The notes below the pieces were generated by a model. That model was given only the letters and a program-made list of their open reading frames with translations, was not told the origin of the DNA and made no database searches. From a bacterium (lineage in GTDB: Bacteria; SZUA-182; DTGQ01): a stretch of DNA of 33,600 nucleotides. The DNA lies in assembly GCA_040752695.1 (NCBI GenBank), contig JBFMGO010000062.1, forward strand, positions 1 to 33,600. The letters run 5' to 3'. A program made the translations under genes and the position numbers. Shown one piece after another: positions 562-17,242 of the stretch (its first letter is position 1; each line of letters opens with the position of its first letter).

Positions 562-1416
562 ATGCAGTTTACTGATCCTCGCTCTGATTATGCTTTCAAG
601 AGGATTTTTGGCAACGATCGTGCTCATGATATTCTGATCTCCTTTCTTAATGCGGTTATGGATCTTAAGGGTGAGAGGAGGATCAAGTCGGTGATCATCC
701 TGAATCCCTATGAGGCGCCCAAGATCAAAGAGCTCAAGCACAGCTTCCTGGATGTAAAGTGTACGGATCATCGTGGAGTGCACTATGTGGTTGAGATGCA
801 GGTTGAATATGTCAAGGGCTTCATCAAGAGGATTATCTATAATTCCTCAAAAGCTTATGTCAACCAGATCGAGCGGGGAGAGAATTATCCCAGACTCAAT
901 CAGGTCATCTCGATCAATATCCTTGACTTTATCATGTTTGAGGATTCATGTGTAGGGTATTTATCTCACCATGTGGTCAAGGAGGCAAAAACCAATCAGA
1001 GCTATATTGATGAGATCAGCTACTACTTTATTGAACTGCCCAAGTTTACCAGGAAAGAGGATGAACTGGAGAATGACCTTGAACGGTGGGTATTCTTCCT
1101 CAAGAATGCGGGCAGCCTTGATTATATCCCTCAAAGCCTTCAGGTCGAGGTCTTCAAAAAGGCCTTTGACATAGCCAGCAGATCCAACCTGAGCAGAGAG
1201 GAATGGGAACTCTACGATCAAAGCATGGTCTTGATTCAGGATCAGAAAGGAGCAGTAGAAGCTGCCCTGGAGAAGGGCATGGCTAAGGGTCTGGAAAAGG
1301 GCATGGCCGAGGGGGAGAAGCGTGGGAAACTTGAATCTGCCAGGAAGCTTTTTCAGCTTGGGGTTGATCCGGAAATTATCAGGAGTTCAACTGGAATATC
1401 GGAGGAGGAGCTTTGA
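562..1416 (+). CDS. Rpn family recombination-promoting nuclease / PD-(D/E)XK putative transposase
   Basis: DPRSDYAFKRIFG N-terminus, LDV...VEMQ catalytic motif, FIELPKF, and C-terminal EKGxxxG repeats with a helical tail. AAGGAGG RBS. Confidence 0.9.
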   Translation: MQFTDPRSDYAFKRIFGNDRAHDILISFLNAVMDLKGERRIKSVIILNPYEAPKIKELKHSFLDVKCTDHRGVHYVVEMQVEYVKGFIKRIIYNSSKAYVNQIERGENYPRLNQVISINILDFIMFEDSCVGYLSHHVVKEAKTNQSYIDEISYYFIELPKFTRKEDELENDLERWVFFLKNAGSLDYIPQSLQVEVFKKAFDIASRSNLSREEWELYDQSMVLIQDQKGAVEAALEKGMAKGLEKGMAEGEKRGKLESARKLFQLGVDPEIIRSSTGISEEEL

Positions 1417-1714: not shown

Positions 1715-2020
1715 ATGGGTGGCATAAGGACGAGTGAAGGGCTTTCAAAAAATTATGCAGGTTCGGATGGTAGACGTATTGGTGGATTTTTAAGGCGCAG
1801 CTCTACATTAACCACACAAGAGAAAAAACGGAATCTCCAGATCGAAAGGCTTGAAATTCTTGCACGGTATAATGCTATGAACGTTGAAGAATTAAGAAGA
1901 AAAATCAGAGAGGGTGCAGTGCCGGGCCTCTCTGCGTGGGAAGATCTTATCGAGGTAAAGAATATCGAAGCTGAAATGAAGGAATTAGATAATAATCTAA
2001 GCATGTTACCACAAGTTTAA
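1715..2020 (+). CDS. small antitoxin-like hypothetical protein, 5' end possibly frameshifted
   Basis: The C-terminal part (LARYNAMNVEELRRKIREGAVPGLSAWEDLIEVKNIE) resembles small TA-associated proteins. An alternative start at 1755 (MQVRMVDVLVDF*) is in another frame. Confidence 0.4.
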   Translation: MGGIRTSEGLSKNYAGSDGRRIGGFLRRSSTLTTQEKKRNLQIERLEILARYNAMNVEELRRKIREGAVPGLSAWEDLIEVKNIEAEMKELDNNLSMLPQV

Positions 2021-2121
2021 TACGCGTAGTTAACACGTGCAGTTAACATGTGCAGTTCAGCATGTGCGGTTAACACGCGCAGTTCAGCATGCGCAGTCGA
2101 GCGCGCTTAGTTCGGCACGCC
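2013..2121. repeat. degenerate tandem repeat, about 8 copies of a 13-14 bp unit (consensus AGTTAACACGTGC)
   Basis: agtttaatacgcgt / agttaacacgtgc / agttaacatgtgc / agttcagcatgtgc / ggttaacacgcgc / agttcagcatgcgc / agtcgagcgcgctt / agttcggcacgcc. Confidence 0.8.
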
Positions 2122-2221
2122 CGACATAACTAAGTATAATTTTACCTGTGCATTTTACCATGAGCAATTTTTACATTTGCAACTCTCATGCATTGTTTAC
2201 AAAGGAGGGTAGGTAATATCG

Positions 2222-2761
2222 GTGTCGGAAGAAAAAGAAATTACTGCAACCGAGGAAAGGGAAAATTCCGCAATTAACGTTTTAGATCTGGATTCGAAGT
2301 TTAAGTATGAGGTTTCCGAGCAGCCAGGGGGTGAAAATCTGAAGATGTGCTTCTCGTGCGGCATTTGTACTGCCGGGTGCCCGGTGACAGAGGTTGAAAA
2401 TGAATATAATCCCCGCAGGTTGATCCGGATGATTTTATTGGGGATGAAGGAGGAAGTGCTTTCTTCCAATCTGATCTGGCTCTGCTCGCTTTGCTACACG
2501 TGCTATGCGCGCTGTCCCCAGAATGTAAAATTTACCGACATTATGGGAGTTTTGCGTGACATGGCAGTTCGGGAAAACTATGTTCACTCCTCCTTTGTCA
2601 AGCATATCAACGAGATTGACCGCCTATCGCAGCAGGTACGTCATCAAATGGTGCGGGCCATCTTTTCTCAAAAAAAAGAAGATCGCCCCATAGACCAGGG
2701 AAGTTTACTGAAGATGGCTGTCGAGAAACTACAGGATGGAGAGAAACTACAGAAGGAGTAA
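2222..2761 (+). CDS. hdrC: heterodisulfide reductase subunit C-like 2x[4Fe-4S] protein
   Basis: CFSCGICTAGCP and WLCSLCYTCYARCP motifs, NPRRLIRMILLG segment. GTG start with a GGAGG RBS. Confidence 0.88.
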   Translation: MSEEKEITATEERENSAINVLDLDSKFKYEVSEQPGGENLKMCFSCGICTAGCPVTEVENEYNPRRLIRMILLGMKEEVLSSNLIWLCSLCYTCYARCPQNVKFTDIMGVLRDMAVRENYVHSSFVKHINEIDRLSQQVRHQMVRAIFSQKKEDRPIDQGSLLKMAVEKLQDGEKLQKE

Positions 2762-2768
2762 AGGGATC

Positions 2769-5700
2769 ATGGGGCTTAATAATGGTCAAAAGAAGATCGG
2801 AGCGGTCATGGTCGTCGGTGGAGGCGTAGCCGGGGTCCAGTCGGCTCTGGATCTGGCGGATTCCGGATACAAGGTCTACCTGGTCGAGCGGGGGCTGAGC
2901 ATTGGTGGAGTAATGGCCCAGCTCGACAAGACCTTTCCGACGAATGACTGTTCAATGTGTATCTTAGCGCCCAAGCTGGTAGATACGGGTCGGCATCAGA
3001 ATATCGAGATTATCACCAATGCCGAAATCCAAAAAGTGGATGGCGATGCAGGAAACTTCCGGGTCAGGGTATTGAAGCATTCCCGGTACGTTGACGAGGC
3101 GAAGTGCACGGGCTGCGGCGACTGTGAAAAGCAATGCCCAGTGGAAGTTCCCAATGAATTCGAGCAGTGCCTGACGATGAGAAAGGCGATTTACAAGCCC
3201 TTTGCCCAGGCTATTCCCAACAGGTATTCCATTGATAAGCTGGGCAAATCCCCCTGCAAGCTCGTTTGTCCGCTGGAGCAGAATGCGCAAGGGTATATCG
3301 CCTTAATTAAAGATAAAAAATTTACCGAGGCATTTAACCTCATCAGAAAGAATAATCCGCTGCCGGCAATCTGCGGAAGAGTTTGCGCACATCCCTGCGA
3401 GGAGGTCTGCAAGCGAGGCGAGATCGATCAGCCTCTTTCCATTGCCGCACTCAAGCGCTTTGCTGCGGATTACGCTAAAACCCATGCGTCGGATGACGCA
3501 TGCGCTCAAAACCTTTCCGAAGAAGCTGGGCAGGGCAAAGAAGGTATACAGGGCAGGGAAGCAGAAAAACGCACGGAAAAGGTCGCCATTGTCGGCGCCG
3601 GGCCTGCCGGATTGGTAGCTGCCCACGATCTGGCCCTGAAAGGGTATCCGGTCACCATCTATGAGGCGCTGCCTGTGGCAGGGGGCATGCTGGCCGTGGG
3701 TATTCCCGAATACCGGCTGCCCAGGGATGTCTTGCAGGCCCAGATCGATGACATCAAGGCGCTGGGTGTGGAAATCAAACTCAATGCTCCCCTCGGTCCT
3801 CAGTTTACTTTGGACGACCTGAAGTCTGACGGATATCGAGCGATCTTACTGGCTACCGGCGCACACAAGAGCCTCAAACTGGAAGTTCCCGGTGAGGAGC
3901 AAAAGGGTGTGATCCACTGCACCGACTTTTTGCGCGAAGTGAATTTAGGCCGGCCGGTAGAGGTTGGCCAGCGGGTTGCGGTCATAGGCGGAGGGAACAC
4001 GGCCATCGATGCTGCCAGAACAGCCTGGCGGCTGGGCGCATCCGAAGTCACCATTGTCTACCGCAGAACCCGGACCGAGATGCCAGCTCTTGAAGATGAA
4101 ATCAATGCCGCCGAGTTCGAAGGAGTCAAGATCGAATATTTGACCGCGCCGGTTGAGATCATCGGAGAAGATACCGGAGAAAACGCCAGAGTGACCGGCT
4201 TAAAATGCATTCGCATGGAATTGGGCGAGCCTGACCAAAGAGGCCGCAGAAGGCCGGTACCCATCGCGGGGACGGAATTTATCATGCCTGTGGATACCGT
4301 GATTCCGGCTTTAAGCCAGGCACCTGACCTTTCCTTTTTGCCTGACGACACACCGTTGAAAAAAAGCCGCTGGGGTTCTCTGGAGGTAGATCCGGTTTCG
4401 GAGGCCACCAATATGGAGGGGATTTTTGCAGCCGGTGAGGTGGTGACCGGGCCTGGCATCGCAGTCGATGCCATGGCTAAGGGCCGTGAGGCAGCCATTT
4501 CCATTGACCGGTTTCTCAATGGCCAGGATATGAAAGAGGGCAGGACTGGTAAAGAGACTCCCGTCAAGGCAGACCCTGACATAAACCGCTGGGATGTCAA
4601 GCCGGCCCGGAGGGTCCATATGCCCATGCTCAGTCTTAAGGAGCGCACGGGGAATTTCAAGGAAGTGGACCTTGGGCTTACAGAGGAAATGGCCATAGCT
4701 GAGGCGCAGCGCTGCCTGAACTGCGGGATCTGCTCTGAGTGCATGGAGTGTGTGGCTACCTGCAAGGCCGGAGCTGTCAATCATGAGCTGAAAGATGAAA
4801 CCGTTGAGCTCGATGTCGGCAGCGTGATTCTTGCCCCGGGGTATGAGGAATTTGACGCCACGCTCAAGACCAGTTTTGGCTATGGACGCTTCCCGAACGT
4901 TGTGGCGAGCATTGAGTTTGAGCGTATCCTGAGCGCTTCCGGGCCTTATAAGGGCCACATCGTCCGGCCTTCCGACCACCGGGAGCCAAAGCGCATCGCC
5001 TTTATTCAGTGCGTAGGCTCGCGTGACACCTCCTGCGATAACGATTACTGTTCATCGGTCTGCTGTATGTATTCCATCAAGGAAGCGGTCATTGCCAGAG
5101 AACATGTGCGTACCATCGAGCCCACCATCTTTTACAACGATATGAGGGCGTATGGGAAGGATTTCGATAAATACGTGAACCGCGCGGAGAAAGAGTACGG
5201 GGTGAGATTCATCAAGTCCCTGGTAGCCAGGGTTGACGAAATCCCCGAGACGAATGACCTGGCCTTGAACTACATCCGCGAGGATGGCACGCTCATCAGC
5301 GAGCGGTTTGACCTGGTCGTTCTGGCCGTAGGTTTCGAGCCGCCCCGGAGTATTCAGGAGATGGCAGCCCGGCTGGATGTGGCTTTGAACCGGTACGGCT
5401 TTTGCCAGACTTCGACTCTGTCACCCTTGAAGACCTCACGGCCCGGTATCTATGTTTGCGGCGCTTTTGTCAGCCCGAAGGATATCCCCGAGACGGTCAT
5501 GCAGGCCAGCGGTGCGGCAGGCGAGGCATCGGCCATTCTATCTTCGGCGAGAAATACGCTCATTACGGAAAAAGTCTATCCTCAAGAGCGCAGCGTAGCA
5601 GGCGAGCCCCCCAGAATCGGCGTTTTTGTCTGTCACTGCGGCATCAACATCGGCGGCTTTGTCAATGTGCCTGAGGTGAGAGAGTATGCACTTACGCTTC

Positions 5701-7310
5701 CCTTTGTGTATTATGCTGCCGATAATCTCTATACCTGCTCGGAAGATACCCAGCAGAAGATGGTCGAGATAATCAAGGAATACCGGCTGAACCGGGTGAT
5801 TGTGGCTTCCTGCTCGCCGAGAACCCACGAGCCGCTTTTCCAGGCGACCATCCGGGAGGCGGGGCTTAATCCTTATCTTTTCGAGATGGCCAATATCCGT
5901 GATCAATGCTCCTGGGTGCATATGTTCGAGAAAGAGAAGGCCACGGCCAAGGCCAAAGACCTGGTCAGGATGGCGGTTTACAAGGCAGCTTTGATCGAGC
6001 CTTTAACCCGGATTTCCCTGCCGGTCAACTCTGCCGCCCTGGTCATCGGAGGCGGTCTGGCCGGTATGACTGCTGCCCTGTCCCTGGCCGATCAGGGCTT
6101 CGATGTCCATTTGGTGGAAAAAGACGGGCAATTGGGAGGAGTGGCCAGGGAAATTTACTACACACCGGAAACAGCGGGCAGAGTTACGGTTCCGAAGGAT
6201 CAGGATTTTCCTGCCTTCCTTCAGGGCGTCATCGAAAAGGTCAAAAACCACCCTATGATCCGGGTCAACCTGAATTCGCAAGTGACTGAAGTCAATGGAT
6301 TCGTCGGCAATTTCTCGTCCGTTATCCAGGCAAAGGGCAGGAAGTTTCCCGTTGATCACGGCGCCATTGTCGTGGCTACCGGCGCTTTAGAGCACTCACC
6401 CACCGAGTATTTATATGGAGAGAGCGCCAAGGTAGTGACGGGCCATGATCTCGAAGCACTGATCGCTCAGGAAGACCAAAGGGTAATGAACGCCAAGAAC
6501 GTGGTCATGATTCAATGCGTGGGCTCACGGGAAGAAGGGCGGATGTATTGCAGTCGCGTCTGCTGCACGCAAAGCGTGAAGAATGCCCTGGCTCTGAAAA
6601 AGGTCAATCCGAAGGCCAATGTATATATTCTCTACCGGGACATTCGAACCTATGGACTGAAAGAGGAATATTATCGGCAGGCCCGGTCCGAGGGCGTGGT
6701 TTTCATCCGCTACGATCTGGACGAAAAACCTCTTGTTTCATCACAATCTACCGGCAATGGGACAGGAAGTATTCAGGTCAGGACCAAAGATCCCATCTTG
6801 AACAGGCAGATTGTCCTGCCGGCGGACCTTTTGGTGCTTGCACCCGCGATCCTTGCTCCTTCAAGCAACAAGGATCTGGCTCAGATGCTCAAGGTGCCGG
6901 TGAACGAGGATGGGTTCTTTCTCGAAGCGCACATGAAATTGCGGCCCGTGGACTTTGCCACCGATGGCATTTTTGTCTGTGGCCTGGCCCATGCCCCGAA
7001 ATCGATGGATGAAAGTATTGCCCAGGCCAAGGCTGCCGCAGCCAGGGCTTCGGTAGTCTTGAGTAAAGCGGCCATCGAGACGCAGGGTCAGACTGCCAAA
7101 GTCGATAAGGCCCGGTGCGCTGCCTGCGGCCTGTGTGAACTGGTATGCGCCTACAAGGCAATCGCGCTGGATGTGCAGGAAGGATGTGCCAAGGTCAATG
7201 AGGCCCTCTGCAAAGGTTGCGGTGCCTGTGCTGCCACCTGCCGCTGTGGGGCGCTGGATGTGAAAGGATTTACCAACCAACAGATATTTCAGATGATGGA
7301 GGCCCTATGA
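2769..7310 (+). CDS. hdrA: large heterodisulfide reductase A-like flavoprotein (HdrL type): two fused HdrA units with an inserted GltD/NfnB-like FAD/NAD(P)H domain
   Basis: GGGVAG...AQLDKTFPTNDCSMC; ferredoxin motif CTGCGDCEKQCP; GltD-like block (PCKLVCP, ICGRVCAHPCEEVC, GAGPAG, GGGNTAID, VYRR, EAQRCLNC); two QCVGSR...YCSxVCC motifs; VCHCGINI/ASCSP/NIRDQCSWVH; C-terminal ferredoxin. Start placed at ATG 2769 rather than 2736. Confidence 0.92.
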   Translation: MGLNNGQKKIGAVMVVGGGVAGVQSALDLADSGYKVYLVERGLSIGGVMAQLDKTFPTNDCSMCILAPKLVDTGRHQNIEIITNAEIQKVDGDAGNFRVRVLKHSRYVDEAKCTGCGDCEKQCPVEVPNEFEQCLTMRKAIYKPFAQAIPNRYSIDKLGKSPCKLVCPLEQNAQGYIALIKDKKFTEAFNLIRKNNPLPAICGRVCAHPCEEVCKRGEIDQPLSIAALKRFAADYAKTHASDDACAQNLSEEAGQGKEGIQGREAEKRTEKVAIVGAGPAGLVAAHDLALKGYPVTIYEALPVAGGMLAVGIPEYRLPRDVLQAQIDDIKALGVEIKLNAPLGPQFTLDDLKSDGYRAILLATGAHKSLKLEVPGEEQKGVIHCTDFLREVNLGRPVEVGQRVAVIGGGNTAIDAARTAWRLGASEVTIVYRRTRTEMPALEDEINAAEFEGVKIEYLTAPVEIIGEDTGENARVTGLKCIRMELGEPDQRGRRRPVPIAGTEFIMPVDTVIPALSQAPDLSFLPDDTPLKKSRWGSLEVDPVSEATNMEGIFAAGEVVTGPGIAVDAMAKGREAAISIDRFLNGQDMKEGRTGKETPVKADPDINRWDVKPARRVHMPMLSLKERTGNFKEVDLGLTEEMAIAEAQRCLNCGICSECMECVATCKAGAVNHELKDETVELDVGSVILAPGYEEFDATLKTSFGYGRFPNVVASIEFERILSASGPYKGHIVRPSDHREPKRIAFIQCVGSRDTSCDNDYCSSVCCMYSIKEAVIAREHVRTIEPTIFYNDMRAYGKDFDKYVNRAEKEYGVRFIKSLVARVDEIPETNDLALNYIREDGTLISERFDLVVLAVGFEPPRSIQEMAARLDVALNRYGFCQTSTLSPLKTSRPGIYVCGAFVSPKDIPETVMQASGAAGEASAILSSARNTLITEKVYPQERSVAGEPPRIGVFVCHCGINIGGFVNVPEVREYALTLPFVYYAADNLYTCSEDTQQKMVEIIKEYRLNRVIVASCSPRTHEPLFQATIREAGLNPYLFEMANIRDQCSWVHMFEKEKATAKAKDLVRMAVYKAALIEPLTRISLPVNSAALVIGGGLAGMTAALSLADQGFDVHLVEKDGQLGGVAREIYYTPETAGRVTVPKDQDFPAFLQGVIEKVKNHPMIRVNLNSQVTEVNGFVGNFSSVIQAKGRKFPVDHGAIVVATGALEHSPTEYLYGESAKVVTGHDLEALIAQEDQRVMNAKNVVMIQCVGSREEGRMYCSRVCCTQSVKNALALKKVNPKANVYILYRDIRTYGLKEEYYRQARSEGVVFIRYDLDEKPLVSSQSTGNGTGSIQVRTKDPILNRQIVLPADLLVLAPAILAPSSNKDLAQMLKVPVNEDGFFLEAHMKLRPVDFATDGIFVCGLAHAPKSMDESIAQAKAAAARASVVLSKAAIETQGQTAKVDKARCAACGLCELVCAYKAIALDVQEGCAKVNEALCKGCGACAATCRCGALDVKGFTNQQIFQMMEAL

Positions 7311-7780
7311 CCGAGGGAAAATGCAGTCGAGTAGAGAGTCAGGAAGGCCAGGCGGCTCAGGGAGGACCCTGGCAGCCCAAAGTCGTGGCCTTCCTGTGCA
7401 ACTGGTGCAGCTACGCAGGGGCGGACCTGGCCGGTATCAGCAGGATTCAGTACCCCCCCAACATCCGTATCATCCGGGTGCCCTGCTCAGGAAGAATAAA
7501 CCCTGTTTTCATTTTAAAAGCCCTGCAGACCGGAGCGGACGCGGTACTAGTCTCCGGCTGTCATCCGGGGGATTGCCACTATGTCAGCGGCAATTACTAT
7601 GCCCGCCGGAAATTCGAGATGTTCAACCGGCTGCTGAATTTCATCGGCCTGGAACCGGGAAGGGTTTTTTTCTCCTGGGTTTCGGCTGCCGAAGGAGAGA
7701 ACTTTGGCCGCCTGATCAAGCATGTCGTGACTGAGGTGGAAAAACTCGGGCCAGCCAGCAAGTTGGTGAAAACAGTATGA
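7307..7780 (+). CDS. flxD: MvhD/FlxD-like [2Fe-2S] subunit
   Basis: FLCNWCSYAGAD, RVPCSGR, GCHPGDCHY motifs. ATGA overlap with the hdrA stop and a GGAGG RBS. Confidence 0.9.
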   Translation: MTEGKCSRVESQEGQAAQGGPWQPKVVAFLCNWCSYAGADLAGISRIQYPPNIRIIRVPCSGRINPVFILKALQTGADAVLVSGCHPGDCHYVSGNYYARRKFEMFNRLLNFIGLEPGRVFFSWVSAAEGENFGRLIKHVVTEVEKLGPASKLVKTV

Positions 7781-7864
7781 AGATGGCATAAAGACGTCAT
7801 GAAGATAGTATGAAGACAGTATGAAGCTTTATCGTCATAAAAAGCTTCATGATTGATATGAAGT
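7772..7864. repeat. degenerate approx. 11-bp tandem repeat (CAGTATGAAGA) starting at the flxD stop codon
   Basis: cagtatgaaga tggcataaaga cgtcatgaaga tagtatgaaga cagtatgaagc ... Confidence 0.65.
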
Positions 7865-7898
7865 TATATATAACCACGGTGGAATATTGACTGATGCT

Positions 7899-7963
7899 AA
7901 AAATCCCCCTTGCCCCTCCTTGAGAAAGGGGGGGTGAGGGCACCCTTGAGAAAAGGGGGGGAA
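7899..7963. repeat. REP-like CCCC-rich/GGGG-rich palindromic element
   Basis: aatcccccttgcccctccttgagaaagggggggtgagggcacccttgagaaaagggggggaa contains two CC(C)TTGAGAAA(A)GGGGGG hairpin units. Confidence 0.6.
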
Positions 7964-7975
7964 CGGAGTAAATTT

Positions 7976-8971
7976 ATGTGGTCAGAGGAAATAACCCGGA
8001 ACATCCGAACCACAGCGGAATCGCTGCTGCGGGAGGGGAAGGTGGATCTTATTATCGGCTATCAGGCCGGCACAACGCCCCTGCGGACGACTCCCGCATT
8101 TATCCGCTCTGCGGAGCAGGCACCTTCGCTGGTTTGGAATCCTTTTTGCGAGAATAACCTCAGTGTCTACCTGCCGAAGCGCAAAGAGAGAATCGGCCTC
8201 ATGGCCAAGGGCTGTGATGGCAGATCCGCTGTAGTGGCTTTGCAGGAGAAGCAAATCGATCGGGATCGCCTGACGATTATCGCGCTTCCCTGCTCAGGAA
8301 TTATTGACCGAAAGAAGCTGGCATCGGCTTTCGATATCGATAAAGTCAAAGGCTTCTCCCTTGAGCAAGACTCGCTGGTGCTGGATGTGGAAAGAGGAGA
8401 ACCGGTGAAGGTAAGCCTTGGGGAATTTTTGCATGCATCCTGCCAGACCTGTACAGAAAGGACCTCGTCCATAGCTGATATTTCCATTGGTCAGGAGGGA
8501 CAGGGGGAGTCAGGAAACGAGGCGAACGAGAGTATGCTCAGGGGGCAGGACGAATTTGCTGAAATCCGGGCATTTGAAGCCCTGAGCAGCCAGGAACGGT
8601 GGGACTATTTTACCGCTCTGGCGCAAAAATGCATCCGGTGCTATGCCTGCCGCAGCGCCTGCCCCTTGTGTTATTGCCAGGAATGTATCGTGGACCAGAC
8701 ACAGCCACAGTGGTTCGGCAAGACCACGGCGCAAGAGGATGTTCTGGTTTACCACATTATGCGCGCCTTTCATGCTGCGGGAAGATGCGTAGATTGTGGC
8801 GCTTGCAGCAGGGCCTGCCCCATGGGCATTGATTTGCGGATTCTCAACAAAAAGCTCCAGAAAGATGTAAAGGAACTTTATCATTATACACCGGGATTGA
8901 ATCCGGATGTAGCGCCAGCCATGGGTGACTATAAGCCTGATGATCCGCAAGAGTGCATCACCGAAAAATAG
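7976..8971 (+). CDS. flxC: FlxC-like iron-sulfur subunit (FrhB/FdhB-like N-terminus plus 2x[4Fe-4S])
   Basis: KVDLIIGY, KGCDGRS, CQTC, CIRCYACRSACPLCYCQEC, GRCVDCGACSRACP. Lies between flxD and flxB. Start at ATG 7976 after GGAG. Confidence 0.82.
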   Translation: MWSEEITRNIRTTAESLLREGKVDLIIGYQAGTTPLRTTPAFIRSAEQAPSLVWNPFCENNLSVYLPKRKERIGLMAKGCDGRSAVVALQEKQIDRDRLTIIALPCSGIIDRKKLASAFDIDKVKGFSLEQDSLVLDVERGEPVKVSLGEFLHASCQTCTERTSSIADISIGQEGQGESGNEANESMLRGQDEFAEIRAFEALSSQERWDYFTALAQKCIRCYACRSACPLCYCQECIVDQTQPQWFGKTTAQEDVLVYHIMRAFHAAGRCVDCGACSRACPMGIDLRILNKKLQKDVKELYHYTPGLNPDVAPAMGDYKPDDPQECITEK

Positions 8972-9105
8972 GTATAAAGAGTAGGTATAAAGAATAGAAA
9001 TAGGGGGCAAGAATCGGGAAGCCAGAGGAAAAACAGCTTTTTCTCCTGACTTTTTGACTTCTTCGACTCCTGAATTCTTCTTTTCAAAAGATAGGAATCA
9101 AAAGA

Positions 9106-10131
9106 ATGGATACAGGGATTATCAAAAAGACAAACGTAAAGGCTGTGATCGAGGGCCTGATGCAGATGGGTGAGGTTATTGCTCCAATCAGGAAGGAGGA
9201 TTACTATGCCTTCTCCCCCCTGTCCTCTGCCGGGGCTGCATGCCTTGATTACACCAACAGCAAACTCAGCCCCAAAAGCTGTTTCTTTCCCCAGACCGAG
9301 GTGCTCTTTTACTACGAAAAAAATGGCCATCAGACCTTCGATCAGCCAGATGAGGAGAGCAGGCCGGGCTATCTATTGGGGATCCGGCCCTGTGATGCCA
9401 GAGCACTGGCACTTTTGGACCCCATTTTCGACGAGCAGCGCTATCAGGACGTTTATTACCTGAAGAAGCGCCGCAACAAGGTAGTGATCGGCCTGGCCTG
9501 TAACGGGCTCCGGAACACCTGCTTTTGCACCTCCACCTGTGGAAGCCCTGTGGGAACCGAAGGAATGGACATGCTCTGGCAGGACCTCGGAGACCGGTAC
9601 CTGGTCAAACCGATAACGGACCGCGGCAGGGAACTGCTGACGAAGATTCCCCCCTCCTTAGGAGAACAGGCAGGGGAGAAAGATCTTGCAAAAGGCAGAG
9701 AGCTTGAGCAGGAGTTCCTCAAAGAGAACACCCCTTGTTTTGACCCGGACCAGATTGCAGACAAGCTGTCATCATCCTTCGATGACCCGGCCTGGCAGAC
9801 GCTCCATGAGAAATGCATCGGCTGTGCTACCTGTGCTTACGTCTGCCCCACCTGCCACTGCTTCGACATCCAGGATGAAAACAAGGCAAGCAAAGGCAGA
9901 CGGGTGAGGTTATGGGATTCCTGCCAGTTATGCCTGTTTACGCTCCATACCTCTGGCCATAATCCCCGGCCTTCGGGCAAAGAGCGCCTGAGGCAAAGAG
10001 TCATGCACAAGTTCAATTACTTTAAAGCTAACAACGGACAGATCGCCTGTGTCGGCTGTGGCAGATGCATCAAGGAGTGTCCGGTCAATGTGGATATCAG
10101 GCAAATCATATCGGCTTTCAGTTTGAGGTAA
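9106..10131 (+). CDS. flxB: FlxB-like (AsrA/HydB family) iron-sulfur subunit
   Basis: GIRPCD, TCFCTS, CIGCATCAYVCPTCHCF, RVRLWDSC, RLRQRVMHKF, CVGCGRCIKECP. Confidence 0.85.
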   Translation: MDTGIIKKTNVKAVIEGLMQMGEVIAPIRKEDYYAFSPLSSAGAACLDYTNSKLSPKSCFFPQTEVLFYYEKNGHQTFDQPDEESRPGYLLGIRPCDARALALLDPIFDEQRYQDVYYLKKRRNKVVIGLACNGLRNTCFCTSTCGSPVGTEGMDMLWQDLGDRYLVKPITDRGRELLTKIPPSLGEQAGEKDLAKGRELEQEFLKENTPCFDPDQIADKLSSSFDDPAWQTLHEKCIGCATCAYVCPTCHCFDIQDENKASKGRRVRLWDSCQLCLFTLHTSGHNPRPSGKERLRQRVMHKFNYFKANNGQIACVGCGRCIKECPVNVDIRQIISAFSLR

Positions 10132-10136
10132 AAAGC

Positions 10137-10970
10137 ATGGAGAATCCTTATCTGCCAAAGAGTGTTAAGATTGAAAAGATAATCGATGAAACCGTAGGGA
10201 AGGATATCAAGAGTTTTGTCCTCTCTTTCATTAACCCCCAGGACCGGAAGGCATTTGACTATCACCCAGGTCAATTCGCCGAAATTTCCGTCGCCGGAGC
10301 GGGGGAAATCCCCATTGGCATCGCTTCTTCGCCAACCGAAGGTGATCAGGTGATGTTTACGGTTAAAAGGATGGGAGTGGTGACCAAAGATCTTCATAAT
10401 TCCTCCCCCGGACGGATCATCGGCCTGCGGGGGCCGTACGGCAACGGGTTCCCCATGGAGGAACTGAAGGGAAAGCATATCTTCATCGTGGGAGGCGGAT
10501 TCGCCTTTACTACCCTGCGCGCTCTGGCCGTCTACCTGATGGGAGACAGAAAAGAGTATGGCGATATCACCATCGTTTATGGAGCGAGAACTCCCGGCGA
10601 CCTTATTTACCGGGAAGAATTGCAGGACTGGGCCAGCCGGAAAGATTTGAATGTCAATATTACGGTGGATAGAGGCGACGCCAACTGGAAGGGAAGAGAA
10701 GGGTTTGTCCCGGCAGTGGTCAAGCAGGTTGCCCCCAGCGCCAAAGATGCCATAGCCTTGGTCTGCGGTCCTCCGATCATGATTAAATTCACCATTCCTG
10801 TTCTCTTTGAGCTTGGCTTTGCAGCGGACAAGATCCTGAACTCCCTGGAGATGAGAATGAAATGCGGATTCGGCAAGTGCGGCCGATGCAATATTGGCAG
10901 CAAGTACGTCTGCAAGGACGGGCCGGTCTTTACCTATGCGGAATTGCAGACCATGCCTCAGGAGTATTGA
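10137..10970 (+). CDS. flxA: FlxA-like (AsrB/PyrK/NfnA family) FAD/NAD(H)-binding [2Fe-2S] subunit
   Basis: PGQF, GEIPIGIASSP, RGPYGNGF, GGGFAF, YGARTP, VCGPPIM, SLEMRMKCGFGKCGRCNIG...VCKDGPVF. Confidence 0.88.
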   Translation: MENPYLPKSVKIEKIIDETVGKDIKSFVLSFINPQDRKAFDYHPGQFAEISVAGAGEIPIGIASSPTEGDQVMFTVKRMGVVTKDLHNSSPGRIIGLRGPYGNGFPMEELKGKHIFIVGGGFAFTTLRALAVYLMGDRKEYGDITIVYGARTPGDLIYREELQDWASRKDLNVNITVDRGDANWKGREGFVPAVVKQVAPSAKDAIALVCGPPIMIKFTIPVLFELGFAADKILNSLEMRMKCGFGKCGRCNIGSKYVCKDGPVFTYAELQTMPQEY

Positions 10971-12049: not shown

Positions 12050-12133
12050 ATATTACTAAGTGGGTATTATTGCAGTGATATAGTAGTATGGTAATGTTTT
12101 TAGAAAACAAAGAAGAAAGGATAGTTGTACACC

Positions 12134-12892
12134 ATGAGTTATACAATTGCCGTAGCCGGGAAAGGCGGAACTGGAAAGACGACCTTGTGCGGTCTGATGA
12201 TCCGCTATTTCGTAACCAGGGGCCAGTCTCCGGTCCTGGCTGTTGATGCCGATGCCAATGCCAATCTTCACGAGGTTCTGGGAATAGAAAAGGGAGAATC
12301 AGTAGGCCAGCTTCGGGAAAAAGCCATGGATGAGGTCAAGGGGCTTCCGGTTGGAGTGACCAAGGAGCAGTATATCGAGCAGAGAATTCACGAGACCCTG
12401 GTAGAGGGGAAGGGGTATGATTTAATATCCATGGGCAGGCCCGAAGGCCCGGGCTGCTACTGTTATGCCAATCATCTGATCCGCAAGTACAGTGAGAAGA
12501 TAAGCCAGAGCTACCGGTATGTGATTATGGATAACGAAGCAGGACTCGAGCATTTGAGCAGGAGAACAACCCAGGATGTCGATGCCCTGGTCATTACCAC
12601 GGATGAAAGCCTGCGCGGCCTTCGGACGGTACAGCGGGTTTTGGATATTATCGAGGAATTGCAGCTTGCGATAAAGAAAAAGTTCATCCTGGTAAACCGC
12701 TCTGTCAGCGGGCTGACCGACGACTTCAATACGCAGATCGCCGGAATGAAAGCCCGATTTTTAGGTACGGTCCCATCTGATGAGATGATCGCCCGGTTTG
12801 ATCTCGAAGGCAAACCTCTCGTTACCCTGCCGGACGATTCCCTGGCTGTTCGAAGGGTATCGGAAATAATGGGGGAACTGGTGGGGGATTAA
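12134..12892 (+). CDS. cooC: CooC/AcsF nickel-insertion ATPase for CODH/ACS
   Basis: AGKGGTGKTT, AVDADANANL, GPGCYC nickel motif, DNEAGLEHLSR. Confidence 0.92.
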   Translation: MSYTIAVAGKGGTGKTTLCGLMIRYFVTRGQSPVLAVDADANANLHEVLGIEKGESVGQLREKAMDEVKGLPVGVTKEQYIEQRIHETLVEGKGYDLISMGRPEGPGCYCYANHLIRKYSEKISQSYRYVIMDNEAGLEHLSRRTTQDVDALVITTDESLRGLRTVQRVLDIIEELQLAIKKKFILVNRSVSGLTDDFNTQIAGMKARFLGTVPSDEMIARFDLEGKPLVTLPDDSLAVRRVSEIMGELVGD

Positions 12893-12900
12893 AATGTTCC

Positions 12901-13116
12901 ATGGAGAAAGTTGGTAAAATGCTGACAGAGGCAGATCGCAAAATCGCGAGTGAATTCCATCGCCGTCTTGCTGCGGTAGTACCGGTGTTCGACATGGTCG
13001 TTTTCGGCGCGCTGGCAAGAGGTGACGCTTCGGTAGAGTCAGACACGGATGTGTTTATCCTGATGGAAACTTTTACGTCTGATATACATCAGCGTATCCA
13101 CGAAAAAGATAGGTAA
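12901..13116 (+). pseudogene. truncated minimal nucleotidyltransferase (MNT)
   Basis: VFGALARGDASVESDTDVFI is a degenerate FGSxARG...SDxD motif. The ORF ends after about 70 aa and no HEPN partner follows. Confidence 0.65.
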
Positions 13117-13121
13117 TAACA

Positions 13122-13448
13122 ATGATATTACAAGCTAATGGAAAGATCTCTTCAACAGCAAAAAAAGATAGCTCTAGGATATATGCTGAAATCAGAATTG
13201 ATAAAGGCAAATATCCTAATTTCCCTCATAATAAGGAGGGCGAATTGCCTGTTTGTTTATTCATAGGCCAAGCTAGGCATCAAACTGTTATACGGGAACG
13301 TAATAAGGTTAAACGTTATTGGATATCGCAGAAAGAGGGATTGTGGGAATTATTAGAAAAACACGGATATTCTCTTAATGATGACATTTTATTGGATATC
13401 GAGACAGATGAAAATCCGATTATGATCAAAATCGGAACCAAAAAATGA
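13122..13448 (+). CDS. hypothetical protein (AT-rich)
   Basis: 108-aa ORF with an AGGT RBS-like site and no recognisable motif. Confidence 0.5.
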   Translation: MILQANGKISSTAKKDSSRIYAEIRIDKGKYPNFPHNKEGELPVCLFIGQARHQTVIRERNKVKRYWISQKEGLWELLEKHGYSLNDDILLDIETDENPIMIKIGTKK

Positions 13449-13537
13449 GAAGAAAAAATATACAAAACGATTCTACCTATCGAATCATTTTTTCTGAAAA
13501 AATAAAAAAACTATAAATAACCTAGAGGCAATTTTAG

Positions 13538-13750
13538 TGGTCCTCTCGCTAAGTAAGTAACATGGATAAGCCTATAAGTGTAGGTATTCTGGAAAACGGC
13601 CTTGATCACGTCATTCCCGCGGAGGCTTAGAATCCAGAAGCCCTTGAAATGCTGGATTCCCGCTTTCGCGGGAATGACACAGAGGATCGCGCTGATTGAT
13701 TCTCCATCTGGCCGCGTGTTTAATGTGTCACATATTTAGCGATAGGACCA
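13538..13750. mobile_element. MITE-like element, 213 bp, with 25-bp imperfect terminal inverted repeats
   Basis: Left arm 13538-13562 tggtcctctcgctaagtaagtaaca versus the reverse complement of 13726-13750 tggtcctatcgctaaatatgtgaca (21/25 identical). No ORF inside. Confidence 0.65.
13610..13678. repeat. GTCATTCCCGC...GCGGGAATGAC palindromic repeat (dRS3/REP-like)
   Basis: gtcattcccgcggaggcttagaatccag...ctggattcccgctttcgcgggaatgac. The right half has the ATTCCC-N8-GGGAAT core. Confidence 0.8.
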
Positions 13751-13788
13751 TTTAGAAAAAGCAAGAAAAGTACACACTCATAAAGAAG

Positions 13789-14115
13789 ATGGTTTTGATG
13801 TTGCAGAATAACCAGATCTTGAAAGAATTTAAAGCAGGAGTTGAAAAACTTTACGGCGAGAGGCTGAAAGGTGTCATTCTTTATGGTTCCTGGGCAAGGA
13901 ATGAAGCTACGGAAGATTCTGATATTGATCTGCTTGTCATCCTTGAAGGATGCGTACGACCAGGAAGAGAAATAGATCGAATGATAGATATTATCACAGA
14001 TCTGAATCTCGAATATATGGTATTGATATCAGTTTATCCGGTATCAGAAGAAGATTATCTTACCTTGAAAAGCCCATTATTGATGAACATCCGAAAAGAG
14101 GGCTTGCCGGTATGA
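13789..14115 (+). CDS. minimal nucleotidyltransferase (MntA-like antitoxin)
   Basis: ILYGSWARNEATEDSDIDLLVI; ATGA overlap with the HEPN gene. Confidence 0.88.
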   Translation: MVLMLQNNQILKEFKAGVEKLYGERLKGVILYGSWARNEATEDSDIDLLVILEGCVRPGREIDRMIDIITDLNLEYMVLISVYPVSEEDYLTLKSPLLMNIRKEGLPV

Positions 14116-14498
14116 AAGAGGTGAAATCCCTCATTGAGAGAGCAAAAAAATACCTTAAGAGCTCCAAGATGCTTATTGAAGAAGAAGACTATGAATCCTC
14201 AGTGTCCAGGGCTTATTATGCAATGTTTTATTCTGTTGAATCGCTGTTATTAACAAAGAACCTGTCGTTTTCATCTCACAGAGGTGTAATTTCAGCATTT
14301 GGCGAGCACTTTATCAAAGCTGGAATTTTTCCAAGAGAGATGGGCAGAGAACTCAATAGAGCATTTGAGAAAAGACAAATAGGAGATTACCAATTCAATT
14401 TCGTTATATCTGAAGAAGAAGCTAATGAGATACTTGAAAAAAGTAGAGATTTTGTAGAAAAGGTAATCTATTACCTCGTAGAGAATGAATTTTTATAA
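14112..14498 (+). CDS. HEPN domain protein (toxin partner of MNT)
   Basis: SVSRAYYAMFY, SSHRGVISAFG, FEKRQIGDY. True start is ATG 14112, coupled to the MNT stop. Confidence 0.88.
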   Translation: MKEVKSLIERAKKYLKSSKMLIEEEDYESSVSRAYYAMFYSVESLLLTKNLSFSSHRGVISAFGEHFIKAGIFPREMGRELNRAFEKRQIGDYQFNFVISEEEANEILEKSRDFVEKVIYYLVENEFL

Positions 14499-14590
14499 AA
14501 GGAAGTTCCTTAAAAAATGGGACCAGCTACAAGAAACGGCAAAGCCACTCATGGTTACCTTCAAGGTAAAGGTAGCGGAAAGAGCTTGAC

Positions 14591-14926
14591 ATGCAACCTG
14601 ACAGACCTGACTCTCGCTTCACCGATTCCATAGACCTGCTCGTGCAGCAGATTGTCGAGGCTGTTCACCCTCTGAGGATCATTCTTTTTGGCTCAGCCGC
14701 CCGTGGCCAGATGCATCCTGAGAGTGACATTGATCTATTGGTAGTGATGCCGGAAGGTGTTCACCGCCGAAGGACGGCTCAATTCCTTTACCGGCAGATA
14801 AAGAGTTTGAAAGTTTCCTTCGATATCCTGGTAGCTACACCCGGTGACCTTGAGCGGCATAAAGATAATATCGGGTTGATTTACCGGGTTATTTTACAGG
14901 AAGGGAAGGAGGTATATGCAGCCTGA
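14591..14926 (+). CDS. minimal nucleotidyltransferase (second MNT)
   Basis: PLRIILFGSAARGQMHPESDIDLLVVM...ILQEGKEVYAA. Confidence 0.85.
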   Translation: MQPDRPDSRFTDSIDLLVQQIVEAVHPLRIILFGSAARGQMHPESDIDLLVVMPEGVHRRRTAQFLYRQIKSLKVSFDILVATPGDLERHKDNIGLIYRVILQEGKEVYAA

Positions 14927-15315
14927 GGGCTGGCTTTTGAGGAAGTCCTGCTGATTGGCTGCGCTATGCTCAGAGCGACCTTGTGCTGGCCCGTGCGTGA
15001 GTCGAGCACCCGGAGTCTTGCTCGAAGAGCTTTGCTTTCACGCTCATCAGGCGGCAGAAGAAGGCGTTCAAAGCGGTATTAGTGGCTAAGGGGATCCCTT
15101 CCCCAGGGACTCACAATATCGGAATGTTGCTTGACTTATTGCCATAAGATCTTATCCTCCCGCAGAAGGTAGAGGATGCAGCGGGTCTTACAGGCTATTA
15201 TGCTGTCATGTGCCGCTATCCGGCTAATGTTGAGCCTATTGCCGAGGGAGGGTATCAGGAAGCGATGCGGATGGCGGCAGCCGTTGTCCAGTGGGCGGAA
15301 AACGTTATCCTGTAG
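14916..15315 (+). pseudogene. HEPN domain pseudogene (several frameshifts and stops)
   Basis: Pieces in different frames: SPADWLRYAQSDLVLARA*, GVLLEELCFHAHQAAE, KAFKAVL...PRTHNIGMLLDLLP*, YAVMCRYP...AVVQWAENVIL*. Confidence 0.8.
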
Positions 15316-15376
15316 GATACAAAAGTTCCAAACGTGATTTAACAGGCACTCTTAAAGAAAAAAGGAGGAAAAAAGC

Positions 15377-16162
15377 ATGCTGGTTATAGGGGAAAGAATT
15401 AATGTAAGGACAAAACTCTTCGCTGAGGCCTTTAAGGAAAAAAATTTCGAGCCGATAGAGGATATGGCCATCAAGCAGGTCAAGGCGGGTGCCAATATGC
15501 TGGACATCAATATCGGCCCGGCCAGAAAGAATGGGACAGAGCTGATGCCCTGGCTGGTGGAAAACATCCAGAAAGTGGTGGATGTGCCCCTGGCTCTCGA
15601 TACGAGCAATATCGAGGCTATCGAGGCAGGGCTAAAGGTCCACAAGGGGAAGGCTCTGATCAACTCTACTTCTGCTGACCCTGAGCGGCTGGCGCTTCTC
15701 ATGCCTCTTACGGCCAAGTATAACGCCATGATTATCGGTCTGACCCTGGCTACCGGCGGATTGCCCCGCGATGCCAACGAGCGGTGCGCTCTGGCTGCCG
15801 AAATTATGGCTTCTGCAGCAGAGCATGGCGTCCCCATGGAAGATATTTATCTTGATCCGATCATGGTTCCCATCAATGGCCAGCAGGAGCAGATAAAAGA
15901 GATCCTTGAGGCCATCAAGATGTTCAGGGAAATGAACGATCCTCCGATGAACAGCCTGATCGGGTTGAGCAATATTTCCAACAGCGCCCCTGAAGAAATG
16001 CGCAGTCTGATCAATCATACGTTCTTGACCATGGCTATTACCGTGGGTTTAACCGGAGCTATCGTCGACACCCTGGACCCTGGAATTATCAATGCCGTGA
16101 AGACAACCTCAGTGATTTTGAACCAGAGTCTGTATTGTCATTCATATTTAGAAACCTGCTAA
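15377..16162 (+). CDS. acsE: methyltetrahydrofolate:corrinoid Fe-S protein methyltransferase
   Basis: MLVIGERIN, LDINIG, PLALDTSN, ALINST, IYLDP, IGLSNISN pterin-binding barrel; acs cluster context. Confidence 0.92.
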   Translation: MLVIGERINVRTKLFAEAFKEKNFEPIEDMAIKQVKAGANMLDINIGPARKNGTELMPWLVENIQKVVDVPLALDTSNIEAIEAGLKVHKGKALINSTSADPERLALLMPLTAKYNAMIIGLTLATGGLPRDANERCALAAEIMASAAEHGVPMEDIYLDPIMVPINGQQEQIKEILEAIKMFREMNDPPMNSLIGLSNISNSAPEEMRSLINHTFLTMAITVGLTGAIVDTLDPGIINAVKTTSVILNQSLYCHSYLETC

Positions 16163-16225
16163 ATGCTAACAAAAGAGTGCCGTACTTTAGAGGCATACGA
16201 TGTGCGGCAGCTAAAGGAGAATGTT

Positions 16226-17161
16226 ATGGCCTTTACTGTGCCTAAAGAAGTATACAACGGAAAAATCAACCAGGTGGAAGTTGGGAAGGACCAACAAGTG
16301 ATCTTCGGAGGAGAGGAGGTTCTTCCTTTCCTTTCTTTTGAAGGGAAGGCTGTTTCGAATGTGCCTCTGGCCCTTGAGATCCAGGACATCGATCCGGGTG
16401 ACTGGGCTCCGTCATTGACTGACATTTACGGACCCGTCATGGGGAATCCGGCAGAGTGGGCCAAACTGTGTCAGGATGAGTTCAAGGCAGACATGATTTG
16501 CCTACGTCTGACCGGCACGCATCCGGACAATGGCGACAAGTCCCCTGAAGAGGCGGGCAAGGTAGTGGAAGCGGTACTTTCGGCCATCAAGGTTCCTTTG
16601 ATTATTTTCGGGAGCAACCATACGGAAAAGGATGCGGCGGTGATCAAGCATGTGGCCGAAGTGGCAGCCAATACCGGTTCGATTATCGGCAAGGCTCAGG
16701 AAAAGAATTACAAAACCTTTGCTGCCGTGGCTACGGCTTACAATCACAAACTGGTGGCACTGTCCGATCTTGATATCAATCTTTCCAAGCAACTGAATAT
16801 TCTGCTGACCCAGAGCGGTTTCGATGGTAAGAACATCATTATCGATGCCATGTCCAGTACACTTGGTTACGGACTGGAATATACCTATTCGGTAATGGAG
16901 AGGATCAGACTGTCTGCTTTGCAGCAAAATGATGCCATGATGCAGATGCCCATGATCAGTGACGTCGGTGAGGTAACCTGGAAGATTAAAGAGGCGAAGG
17001 CAACCGAAGAAGAGCAGCCTGGCTGGGGAGCGGTCGAGCCAAGGGGAATCCTCTGGGAATCTCTCGCTGCTTTGAGCTTCCTTATGGCTGGTGGAAACCT
17101 GGTCGTTTTGCGTCATCCCAAGGCATTGGCGACGATCCGCAAGACTGTGGCGGAATTTTGA
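16226..17161 (+). CDS. acsD: corrinoid iron-sulfur protein small subunit
   Basis: GGEEVLPFLSFEG, DINLSKQLN, LGYGLEYTYSVMERIRL, LRHP. Start at ATG 16226 after AAGGAG. Confidence 0.93.
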   Translation: MAFTVPKEVYNGKINQVEVGKDQQVIFGGEEVLPFLSFEGKAVSNVPLALEIQDIDPGDWAPSLTDIYGPVMGNPAEWAKLCQDEFKADMICLRLTGTHPDNGDKSPEEAGKVVEAVLSAIKVPLIIFGSNHTEKDAAVIKHVAEVAANTGSIIGKAQEKNYKTFAAVATAYNHKLVALSDLDINLSKQLNILLTQSGFDGKNIIIDAMSSTLGYGLEYTYSVMERIRLSALQQNDAMMQMPMISDVGEVTWKIKEAKATEEEQPGWGAVEPRGILWESLAALSFLMAGGNLVVLRHPKALATIRKTVAEF

Positions 17162-17242
17162 TCGATGGTGAAAAATCCCCTACGGGTCACGAGCGCAATG
17201 AACGGCCCAGGGTTGTAAAGAGAAAGAAAGGAGACTAAGATA

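Follow-up and report, generated by a model that had tools for sequence, protein, structure and literature searches.

A heterodisulfide reductase-type hdrC-hdrL-flxDCBA gene block without hdrB: a candidate part of a methylene-tetrahydrofolate reductase

What does an HdrC subunit serve where no HdrB accompanies it? The question is raised by a 33,600-nucleotide stretch of DNA (contig JBFMGO010000062.1 of assembly GCA_040752695.1, from a bacterium of the GTDB lineage SZUA-182), called here the window, which is the whole of contig C62 of this genome. It carries hdrC-hdrL-flxD-flxC-flxB-flxA as one tight block on the plus strand, HdrL being a giant form of the flavoprotein HdrA. We hold it to be about an even bet that this block encodes the NAD(P)H/ferredoxin-linked part of a heterodisulfide reductase (Hdr)-type methylene-tetrahydrofolate (methylene-THF) reductase, in which MetVF would replace HdrB as the high-potential end and FlxCBA would provide a second nucleotide input. 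Gene content, domain architecture, motifs and synteny were read directly from the sequences; by synteny, the six genes appear to form the downstream end of a conserved set of about ten genes, hdrA-mvhD-metV-metF-hdrC-hdrL-flxD-flxC-flxB-flxA.

A preliminary description of the window had reported no hdrB, hydrogenase, formate dehydrogenase or metF gene, and this is borne out: Pfam detected CCG, NiFe or FeFe hydrogenase, molybdopterin/formate dehydrogenase and methylene-THF reductase (MTHFR) domains in none of the 29 window open reading frames (ORFs) scanned, and a six-frame search with the CCG profile (PF02754) found no match on its contig. Over the whole genome (6.05 Mb in 239 contigs, 96.6% complete) the same search gave two matches, in the same frame of one protein on contig C25, where a fused hdrA-hdrA-mvhD gene (1249 aa) is followed by hdrC and hdrB (L003, 7590–15262). 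This is the only HdrB of the genome; it is not an orphan and lies within its own hdrA-mvhD/hdrC/hdrB cluster. The gene order and spacing first given for the window also hold, including the 7-nt gap between the hdrC stop codon (TAA, 2759–2761) and the hdrL ATG (2769), with GAAGGAG just 5' of hdrL. The flxD frame had to be corrected: the mechanically called ORF at 7321–7734 is in the wrong frame, and the true MvhD-type gene spans 7307–7780, its ATG overlapping the hdrL stop codon as ATGA and its product being 83–89% identical in the closest relatives.

HdrL loci were collected by a scan of one genome per species, which returned 540 stretches, 495 of them encoding an HdrL relative; the best 80 were kept and gave 77 loci with HdrL identities of 47–79%. 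Their hosts are unclassified bacterial metagenome-assembled genomes, Latescibacterota, Aerophobetes, Chloroflexota, Thermodesulfobacteriota/Syntrophaceae, Delongbacteria, Bathyarchaeia and Asgard archaea. Genes were mapped by tblastn with proteins of the window and of its own genome, and 39 unassigned ORFs upstream of hdrL were assigned by Pfam. Counting was restricted to the 43 loci in which the HdrL N-terminus is seen and at least 1500 bp lie upstream; the other 34 of the 77 were excluded for a GltD part that is discontinuous (tandem HdrA of the Bathyarchaeia type, which has no insert, or interrupted high-scoring segment pairs, as in L063 and L069), a missing N-terminus or less than 1500 bp upstream. 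The counts are descriptive, as they come from the best 80 of 495 relatives and the rows are related to one another.

Twelve of the 43 loci read metV-metF-hdrC-hdrL without hdrB (loci of the order metF-hdrC-hdrL are called class A hereafter). Another 21 have hdrC and hdrB upstream of hdrL and no metF anywhere in the locus; Syntrophaceae and relatives commonly show the order hdrC-hdrB-hdrL-flxDCBA, and seven of the 21, all Asgard, encode a fused HdrCB (an HdrC joined to CCG was seen by Pfam in L035 at 8729–9937, in L040 and in L071; the other four Asgard loci were assigned by likeness). hdrC only, preceded by flxCBA, is found in four loci (L047, L052, L068, L075), and none of hdrC, hdrB and metF in the remaining six. 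Thus metF stands directly upstream of hdrC in 12 of the 16 hdrB-less hdrC-hdrL loci versus 0 of the 21 that contain hdrB. This mutual exclusivity of metF adjacency and hdrB presence beside HdrL speaks for a substrate module in this place. The preliminary description had proposed, as one of two options, that a partner encoded elsewhere, HdrB or MetVF, docks through HdrC: synteny favours MetVF.

The five closest relatives with upstream DNA (L009–L012 and L014; HdrL 75–79% identical) all read metF-hdrC-hdrL and, like the window, have no hdrB at this site; the absence of HdrB is thus not a recent deletion. L009 and L085, which show the same order, have short flanks and stand outside the 43. Where genes lie between hdrC and hdrL in class A, they are of IS200, AAA_14/DUF4143, GAF-HD or toxin-antitoxin type and never encode a CCG domain (Pfam). 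An hdrA-like gene and mvhD precede metVF in all seven class-A loci that extend 4 kb or more upstream of metV, and mvhD was seen there in L011 and L031, whose upstream flanks are shorter. Downstream, flx genes follow as far as the contig reaches in 13 of 14 class-A loci, and acs or cooS lies within 10 kb in three (L010, L014, L042) of the eight with that reach.

In the window genome the corresponding metVF genes are on another contig. L010 and L014 (HdrL 77–79% identical) carry on one contig metV-metF-hdrA-mvhD-metV-metF-hdrC-hdrL-flxDCBA-cooC-acsE-acsD-acsC-cooS, which is the order of contig C87 followed by that of the window. C87 holds, by tblastn and Pfam, folE-folD-gcvH-metV-metF-hdrAa-hdrAb-mvhD-metV-metF, running toward the contig end; the HdrA that precedes its last metVF pair is split in two, the overlapping genes encoding 441 and 603 aa (L005, 4333–7462); HdrAa has R instead of the signature K, and HdrAb is without the CC…K motif. 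The last metVF pair of C87 shares 82–90% identity with the pair next to hdrC in L010 and L014, the first pair only ~40%. The first 178 bases of C87, next to metF, are 81–87% identical to the window transposase gene at 562–1416, in matching orientation, and PDDEXK_2 transposase-like sequence is found at both the C87 and the C62 ends. This gene seems to mark the metF|hdrC junction as broken or interrupted by an insertion; L014 carries a different insertion there, of ~1.25 kb (8224–9478), toxin-antitoxin-like by eye. We infer that metF and hdrC are neighbours in the window genome too, parted by mobile DNA where the assembly broke. Clustering of metF and metV with hdr-mvhD genes is thus seen in 12 of 16 hdrB-less relatives and not in the window, whose own orthologues lie at the end of C87. 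A third metF, without metV, is on contig C31.

HdrL itself is a double HdrA. Its residues 13–157 align to residues 146–290 of HdrA (5odc_A), residues ~160–650 to NfnB, GltD, Stn and NfnABC chains of the PDB, and residues 653–938 to HdrA ~287–566; residues 946–1513 correspond to a whole second HdrA (5odc_A 2–239 and 321–648, with 240–320 skipped). The two units are complementary: unit 1 keeps the Cys197-equivalent without the N-terminal domain, whereas unit 2 has the N-terminal domain, no Cys197 and no inserted ferredoxin domain. The E356/K409 pair of 5ODC, the marker used for recognising bifurcating HdrA flavins, is kept in both (E718/K771 and E1229/K1271). The insert, which lies in the ferredoxin domain, can be aligned over its whole length to chains of NfnB (E 1e-93 to 1e-124); its YRR, at residues 431–433, belongs to a GGGNTA…YRR motif also found in the NfnB chains 5jca_L and 4ylf_B and in the Stn chain 8oh5_C. 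The claim that the block encodes two pyridine-nucleotide modules is therefore upheld, one being this GltD/NfnB-like insert and the other FlxA, a FAD / NAD(P)H / [2Fe-2S] protein type by Pfam (NAD_binding_1 and DHODB_Fe-S_bind) and PRK08345.

The HdrA of Moorella thermoacetica (1487 aa) is described as having a GltD domain that interrupts the first TrxR-like domain, three sites for FAD and a single one for NAD(P)H, the E/K pair in both domains and a C-terminal unit without inserted ferredoxin domain (PMC9430772). HdrL has this same architecture, by comparison with the published descriptions (PMC9430772, PMC9012536). The preliminary description had rightly placed a GltD/NfnB-like domain within HdrA and had missed that this is the Moorella-type HdrA architecture of a known methylene-THF reductase. 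The name HdrL was first used for a protein of Desulfobacterium autotrophicum (PMC2702500), so that the protein type was already known.

The HdrC of the window departs from HdrB-linked HdrCs. It matches the HdrC chains of the PDB over residues 12–121 only, and in class-wise consensus sequences (15 class-A, 6 flxA-hdrC and 19 HdrB-linked rows) the C-terminal part of HdrB-less HdrCs is ~9 residues shorter than that of HdrB-linked HdrCs and has lost several conserved positions. We take this C-terminal segment to be the one that contacts HdrB in solved complexes. On a tree of 51 rows, from which six fused, double or truncated rows were excluded, the HdrB-less HdrCs stand apart from the main clade of HdrB-linked HdrCs, which has 21 rows. 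Six longer HdrC homologues were found: three MvhD-HdrC, one DUF3786-HdrC, one HdrC-flavoprotein and P0063. The last was rejected as a MetF-HdrC fusion: its MetF alignment ends at residue 274 and Arg/Pro-rich sequence follows after residue 430, so that it is best read as a frameshifted gene call that shows metF-hdrC adjacency only and no fusion. The DUF3786 fusion, P0062, contains an HdrC of the HdrB-less subtype (44% identity, 89% query coverage); DUF3786 is a domain known from acetyl-CoA synthase gene clusters.

MetV, the proposed neighbour of HdrC, is found in various fusions. Among 60 longer MetV homologues, 21 are MetV-MetF, 30 RnfC-like-MetV, two GltD-like-MetV, one FolD, two histidine-kinase and four other fusions; P0023 (882 aa, on a 2.67-Mb contig) joins Fer4_20 and Pyr_redox_2 to the MetV C-terminal domain (Pfam). 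These fusions indicate that MetV has repeatedly been joined to nucleotide-linked electron-input modules, including the type embedded in HdrL. P0029, which looks like a chimera of an HdrL N-terminus and MetV, comes from a 3.9-kb contig and was given no weight. No MetV relatives were found in the PDB. The idea that MetV is a hidden HdrB homologue was discarded, as hhalign gave a probability of 0.3% (12 MetV rows versus 24 HdrB rows). A complex prediction for MetV, MetF and HdrC (12 rows each, no controls) scored 0.00 and weighs neither way. In Sporomusa ovata, MetV and MetF were pulled down with HdrA and MetF with HdrB, and HdrC could not be tested (PMC9430772).

From these genes we infer a path for the electrons, including the HdrC-MetV contact, the nucleotide specificities and bifurcation itself. 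FlxA would oxidise NAD(P)H, with FlxB, FlxC and FlxD, a [2Fe-2S] protein, passing the electrons on to HdrL, whose GltD/NfnB-like insert would form the second nucleotide site, probably for NADP(H). An HdrL flavin bearing the E/K signature would split the electron pairs. The high-potential electron would travel through the two HdrC clusters to MetV, the MetF flavin and methylene-THF (E0' -200 mV, as quoted in PMC9430772), while the low-potential one would leave through the ferredoxin-like domains to ferredoxin, for the neighbouring carbon monoxide dehydrogenase/acetyl-CoA synthase or for Rnf. Run in reverse, reduced ferredoxin would help the uphill oxidation of methyl-THF with NAD(P)+.

Several observations weigh against this reading. 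The window itself has no metVF, and its join to C87 is a deduction. L031 has no flx genes in 5.5 kb downstream of hdrL. In four of the 16 hdrB-less hdrC-hdrL loci flxCBA and not metF lies upstream, and in six of the 43 loci neither hdrC nor metF does, so that HdrL-Flx can clearly work with other partners or with none. CCG proteins are encoded elsewhere in four of the five class-A genomes tested. Ferredoxin coupling was never demonstrated for the Moorella enzyme (PMC5861303), and that of Sporomusa has a membrane link instead (PMC9430772). Several class-A lineages have hdrC close to metF (30–137 bp in 10 of the 12 loci) yet split from hdrL by inserted genes, and it may belong to the upstream hdrA-mvhD-metVF unit and not to HdrL. 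From this last point follows an account with two enzymes, which we regard as unlikely, in which hdrA-mvhD-metVF-hdrC would be an HdrB-less methylene-THF reductase and HdrL-FlxDCBA an independent NAD(P)H/ferredoxin module next to it. The loci with HdrL-flxDCBA and no upstream hdrC would fit such a division, as would the hdrA-mvhD-metVF-hdrCB order in print for Hakuba Actinobacteria (PMC7325909), which we also count in favour of the main reading. However, hdrC and hdrL are only 7–20 bp apart in the window lineage, and HdrC is a habitual neighbour of HdrL, standing directly upstream with HdrB in 21 of the 43 loci and alone in four more; moreover, the upstream HdrAab of C87 departs from the signature, as described above. 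How the ten genes divide into particles, with HdrC belonging either to the upstream HdrA-MvhD-MetVF unit or to HdrL, is the main uncertainty. A single supercomplex of all ten products seems to us doubtful but worth stating: split HdrAab-MvhD and HdrL-FlxD would act in series, as two HdrA-type flavoproteins, and couple NADH, entering via FlxA, and NADPH, via the NfnB-like insert, to ferredoxin and, through HdrC-MetVF, to methylene-THF/methyl-THF.

The other two accounts dispense with MetVF. HdrC-HdrL-FlxDCBA could be a stand-alone enzyme of the Nfn/Stn kind, exchanging electrons among NADH (FlxA), NADP(H) (the insert) and ferredoxin with no third substrate, an option raised in the preliminary description. 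It would suit the two nucleotide modules, the YRR motif common to NADPH-binding NfnB and Stn chains and the hdrB-less loci with no metF nearby, and HdrA-NfnB fusions of anaerobic methanotrophic (ANME-1) archaea have been interpreted likewise (PMC9012536). We nevertheless find it improbable, as the mutual exclusivity of metF and hdrB points to a substrate module, and a gene for a fused NfnAB-like protein is already present on contig C4 of the genome (760 aa; PRK12778, 1091 bits versus a cut-off of 1103), which weakens the option. HdrC is also retained, and we know of no role for HdrC other than wiring HdrA to a terminal site. Very improbable, finally, is a classical Flx-Hdr complex that borrows the C25 HdrB, or another thiol/disulfide site, in trans: the genome does have that one HdrB, and most of the class-A genomes tested have CCG proteins, but the C25 protein has an HdrC and a fused HdrA-MvhD of its own, the window HdrC is without the C-terminal segment kept in HdrB-linked HdrCs, and the hdrB-less state persists across four or five deep HdrL clades. 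On an HdrL tree of 44 rows (FastTree), good support is found for four or five class-A clades, namely the six rows of the window lineage, a group of Latescibacterota, L031/L033/L053, Chloroflexota and L085. As the backbone of this tree is unresolved, one origin and several origins of the HdrB-less state are both possible.

HdrL-FlxDCBA is a portable module, found in bacteria and archaea beside HdrCB, fused HdrCB, MetVF-HdrC and 2-oxoacid or aldehyde oxidoreductase genes. The 2-oxoacid:ferredoxin oxidoreductase genes lie upstream of HdrL-flxDCBA in L026 (309–2822) and L029 (151–1217), from Aerophobetes and Clostridia, L029 having less than 1500 bp upstream and standing outside the 43; an aldehyde:ferredoxin oxidoreductase gene does so in L056 (7147–8985). 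Within the window genome, contig C2 (L004, 5817–11419, minus strand) holds a second hdrA-flxDCBA set with neither hdrB nor hdrC, adjoining response regulator and histidine kinase genes. The C25 cluster is divergent from cytochrome b and multihaem c7-type genes and recalls the membrane-linked Hdr model proposed for S. ovata. A DsrK-type sulfate-reduction set-up is unlikely here, judging from the single CCG protein; dsr genes were not searched for. The genome also has two Rnf/Nqr-type clusters and several NiFe hydrogenases; FlxBA-like pairs on C78 and C131 were rejected as further Flx systems, being neighbours of NiFe hydrogenase large-subunit matches.

Table 1. Coordinates of the window features, with the four parts of HdrL listed below its gene.
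Feature	Position	Strand	Description
PD-(D/E)XK transposase gene	562..1416	+	Pfam PDDEXK_2 6e-57; between contig start and hdrC
Tandem repeat	2017..2097	.	~5-6 copies of a 13-nt unit (3 copies at period 27); TRF
Sigma-70-like promoter match	2112..2140	+	10/12 positions; 5' of hdrC; consensus scan only
hdrC	2222..2761	+	179 aa; two CxxCxxCxxxCP [4Fe-4S] motifs; Fer4_8, partial TIGR03290; HdrB-less subtype
hdrL	2769..7310	+	1513 aa
HdrL, HdrA unit 1, N-terminal part	2769..3245	+	FAD Rossmann fold, Cys197-equivalent, first ferredoxin motif; without HdrA N-terminal domain
HdrL, GltD/NfnB-like insert	3246..4718	+	Fer4_20, FAD, NAD(P)H site; Pfam, NCBIfam, PDB chains
HdrL, rest of HdrA unit 1 (TrxR-like domain)	4719..5603	+	E718, K771
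HdrL, HdrA unit 2	5604..7310	+	N-terminal domain, TrxR-like domain with E1229/K1271, C-terminal 2x[4Fe-4S] domain
flxD (MvhD-type [2Fe-2S])	7307..7780	+	157 aa; translation; NF045873 VhuD 4e-37
flxC	7976..8971	+	Iron-sulfur; weak FrhB_FdhB_C match (Pfam), two 4Fe-4S motifs; longest ORF start 7910
flxB	9106..10131	+	AsrA/ShyB-like 4Fe-4S; Fer4_22 8e-33, NF040829
flxA	10137..10970	+	AsrB/HydG/PyrK type; NAD_binding_1, DHODB_Fe-S_bind, PRK08345; longest ORF start 10065
cooC, two HEPN/nucleotidyltransferase pairs, acsE, acsD, acsC, cooS, acsB	12125..23013	+	Pfam, NCBIfam

The starts given in Table 1 for flxC (7976) and flxA (10137) are likely the true ones, being where the proteins of relatives begin to align; FlxC relatives align from residues 20–32 on (tblastn). 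The 13-nt repeat array sits just 5' of the promoter-like site before hdrC and may consist of regulator-binding sites; a degenerate form of its motif was found in none of the 85 fetched loci. The promoter consensus scan gave 12 sites versus 9.3 expected in shuffles. A terminator scan gave 12 versus 11.8 expected, none convincing within the operon, and Rfam and tRNA scans of the window gave no matches. Short tandem repeats at 7772–7826 and 8967–8997 (11/22 nt and 13 nt) occupy the unusually long flxD-flxC and flxC-flxB spacers.

Downstream of flxA, the cooC-acsEDC-cooS-acsB genes named in the preliminary description are present by Pfam and NCBIfam. The Wood-Ljungdahl supercluster of this genome is interspersed with mobile and toxin-antitoxin genes: MqsA/YokU-like, antitoxin-like ORFs lie at 11490–12049 between flxA and cooC, which in L014 are 67 bp apart, and the two HEPN/nucleotidyltransferase pairs lie at 13789–14926 between cooC and acsE. 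Further downstream, a chorismate synthase gene (23229–24611) encodes 460 aa, with a Pfam match that spans residues 12–431 of the protein for a profile of 327 positions, which suggests an insertion of ~100 residues.

Among published systems, the HdrCBA-MvhD-MetVF ('type IV') methylene-THF reductase of M. thermoacetica and S. ovata is alike in its giant double HdrA with a GltD-type FAD/NAD(P)H insert and E/K in both units, in the clustering of MvhD, HdrC and MetVF (in the relatives of the window genome) and in its Wood-Ljungdahl context. It differs in that HdrB is missing here (no CCG in the window, its contig or the class-A loci), the order is metVF-hdrC-hdrL-mvhD, the FlxCBA NAD(P)H module comes in addition, and the upstream region holds a second, split HdrA with MvhD and a second MetVF pair. 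FlxABCD-HdrABC, the NADH dehydrogenase/heterodisulfide reductase of Desulfovibrio vulgaris, likewise has flxDCBA next to hdrC and an HdrA-type flavoprotein; unlike it, our locus has no HdrB, the proposed DsrC-reducing site, and its HdrA is the large HdrL form (PMC4759654, PMC10553843). The HdrL proteins of D. autotrophicum and Syntrophobacter fumaroxidans are large HdrA/glutamate-synthase-type fusions followed by MvhD (PMC2702500, PMC5947623), and the ANME-1 HdrA-NfnB fusions have an NfnB-like insert of ~500 aa in the ferredoxin domain, for which NADPH and a second bifurcation site were suggested (PMC9012536); these were discussed in connection with sulfite/DsrC or CoM-CoB chemistry, whereas the present system has no selenocysteine and a link to MetVF.

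By sequence match, the HdrL insert is a module of the NfnB type that has FAD, two [4Fe-4S] clusters and a motif for NADP(H), as in NfnAB, Stn and NfnABC. Here, in contrast, the module is embedded in HdrA and there is no free NfnB subunit with a PyrK-like NfnA as its partner; FlxA belongs to the AsrB/HydG type and would be wired through FlxB, FlxC and FlxD rather than bound directly like NfnA. Unlike methanogen-type HdrABC, the locus encodes no HdrB with non-cubane clusters as disulfide site. The class II benzoyl-CoA reductase BamB-I resembles it in BamE, a fused HdrA dimer in which one FAD is bifurcating and the other structural, in having an MvhD-like subunit and an NADH module, and in its non-disulfide output; it is a precedent for HdrA modules that feed non-disulfide substrates, although BamB-I keeps the HdrBC-like BamD and has a different substrate module (bioRxiv 10.64898/2026.04.10.717634). 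HdrL, HdrA-NfnB fusions, Flx-Hdr and Hdr-type methylene-THF reductases, as well as HdrA genes beside Wood-Ljungdahl genes, are already published (PMC2702500, PMC5947623, PMC9012536, PMC4759654, PMC9430772, PMC5736913, PMC7325909, PMC10553843). Neither an HdrB-less metVF-hdrC-hdrL-flxDCBA arrangement nor the mutual exclusivity of metF and hdrB beside HdrL was found in the literature text, and figures or supplements (such as Fig. 2 of PMC5736913 and S10 Fig of PMC10553843 for the arrangement) may show them.

The bioenergetics of the Wood-Ljungdahl pathway has long had a gap where the electron partners of methylene-THF reductase should stand. In acetate or methyl oxidisers, the oxidation of methyl-THF by NAD+ is an uphill reaction. 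For the Moorella enzyme, the second acceptor is described as still unknown (PMC5861303, PMC9430772). A conserved natural variant in which HdrB is dropped, MetVF appears in its position and a second NAD(P)H module is present narrows the possible wiring, and it offers a defined gene set for heterologous expression, contiguous in L010. If the supercomplex were real, it would be natural proof that HdrB is dispensable in Hdr-type methylene-THF reductases, and ferredoxin, with a second nucleotide, would be the long-sought co-substrate that makes this step energy-conserving and reversible.

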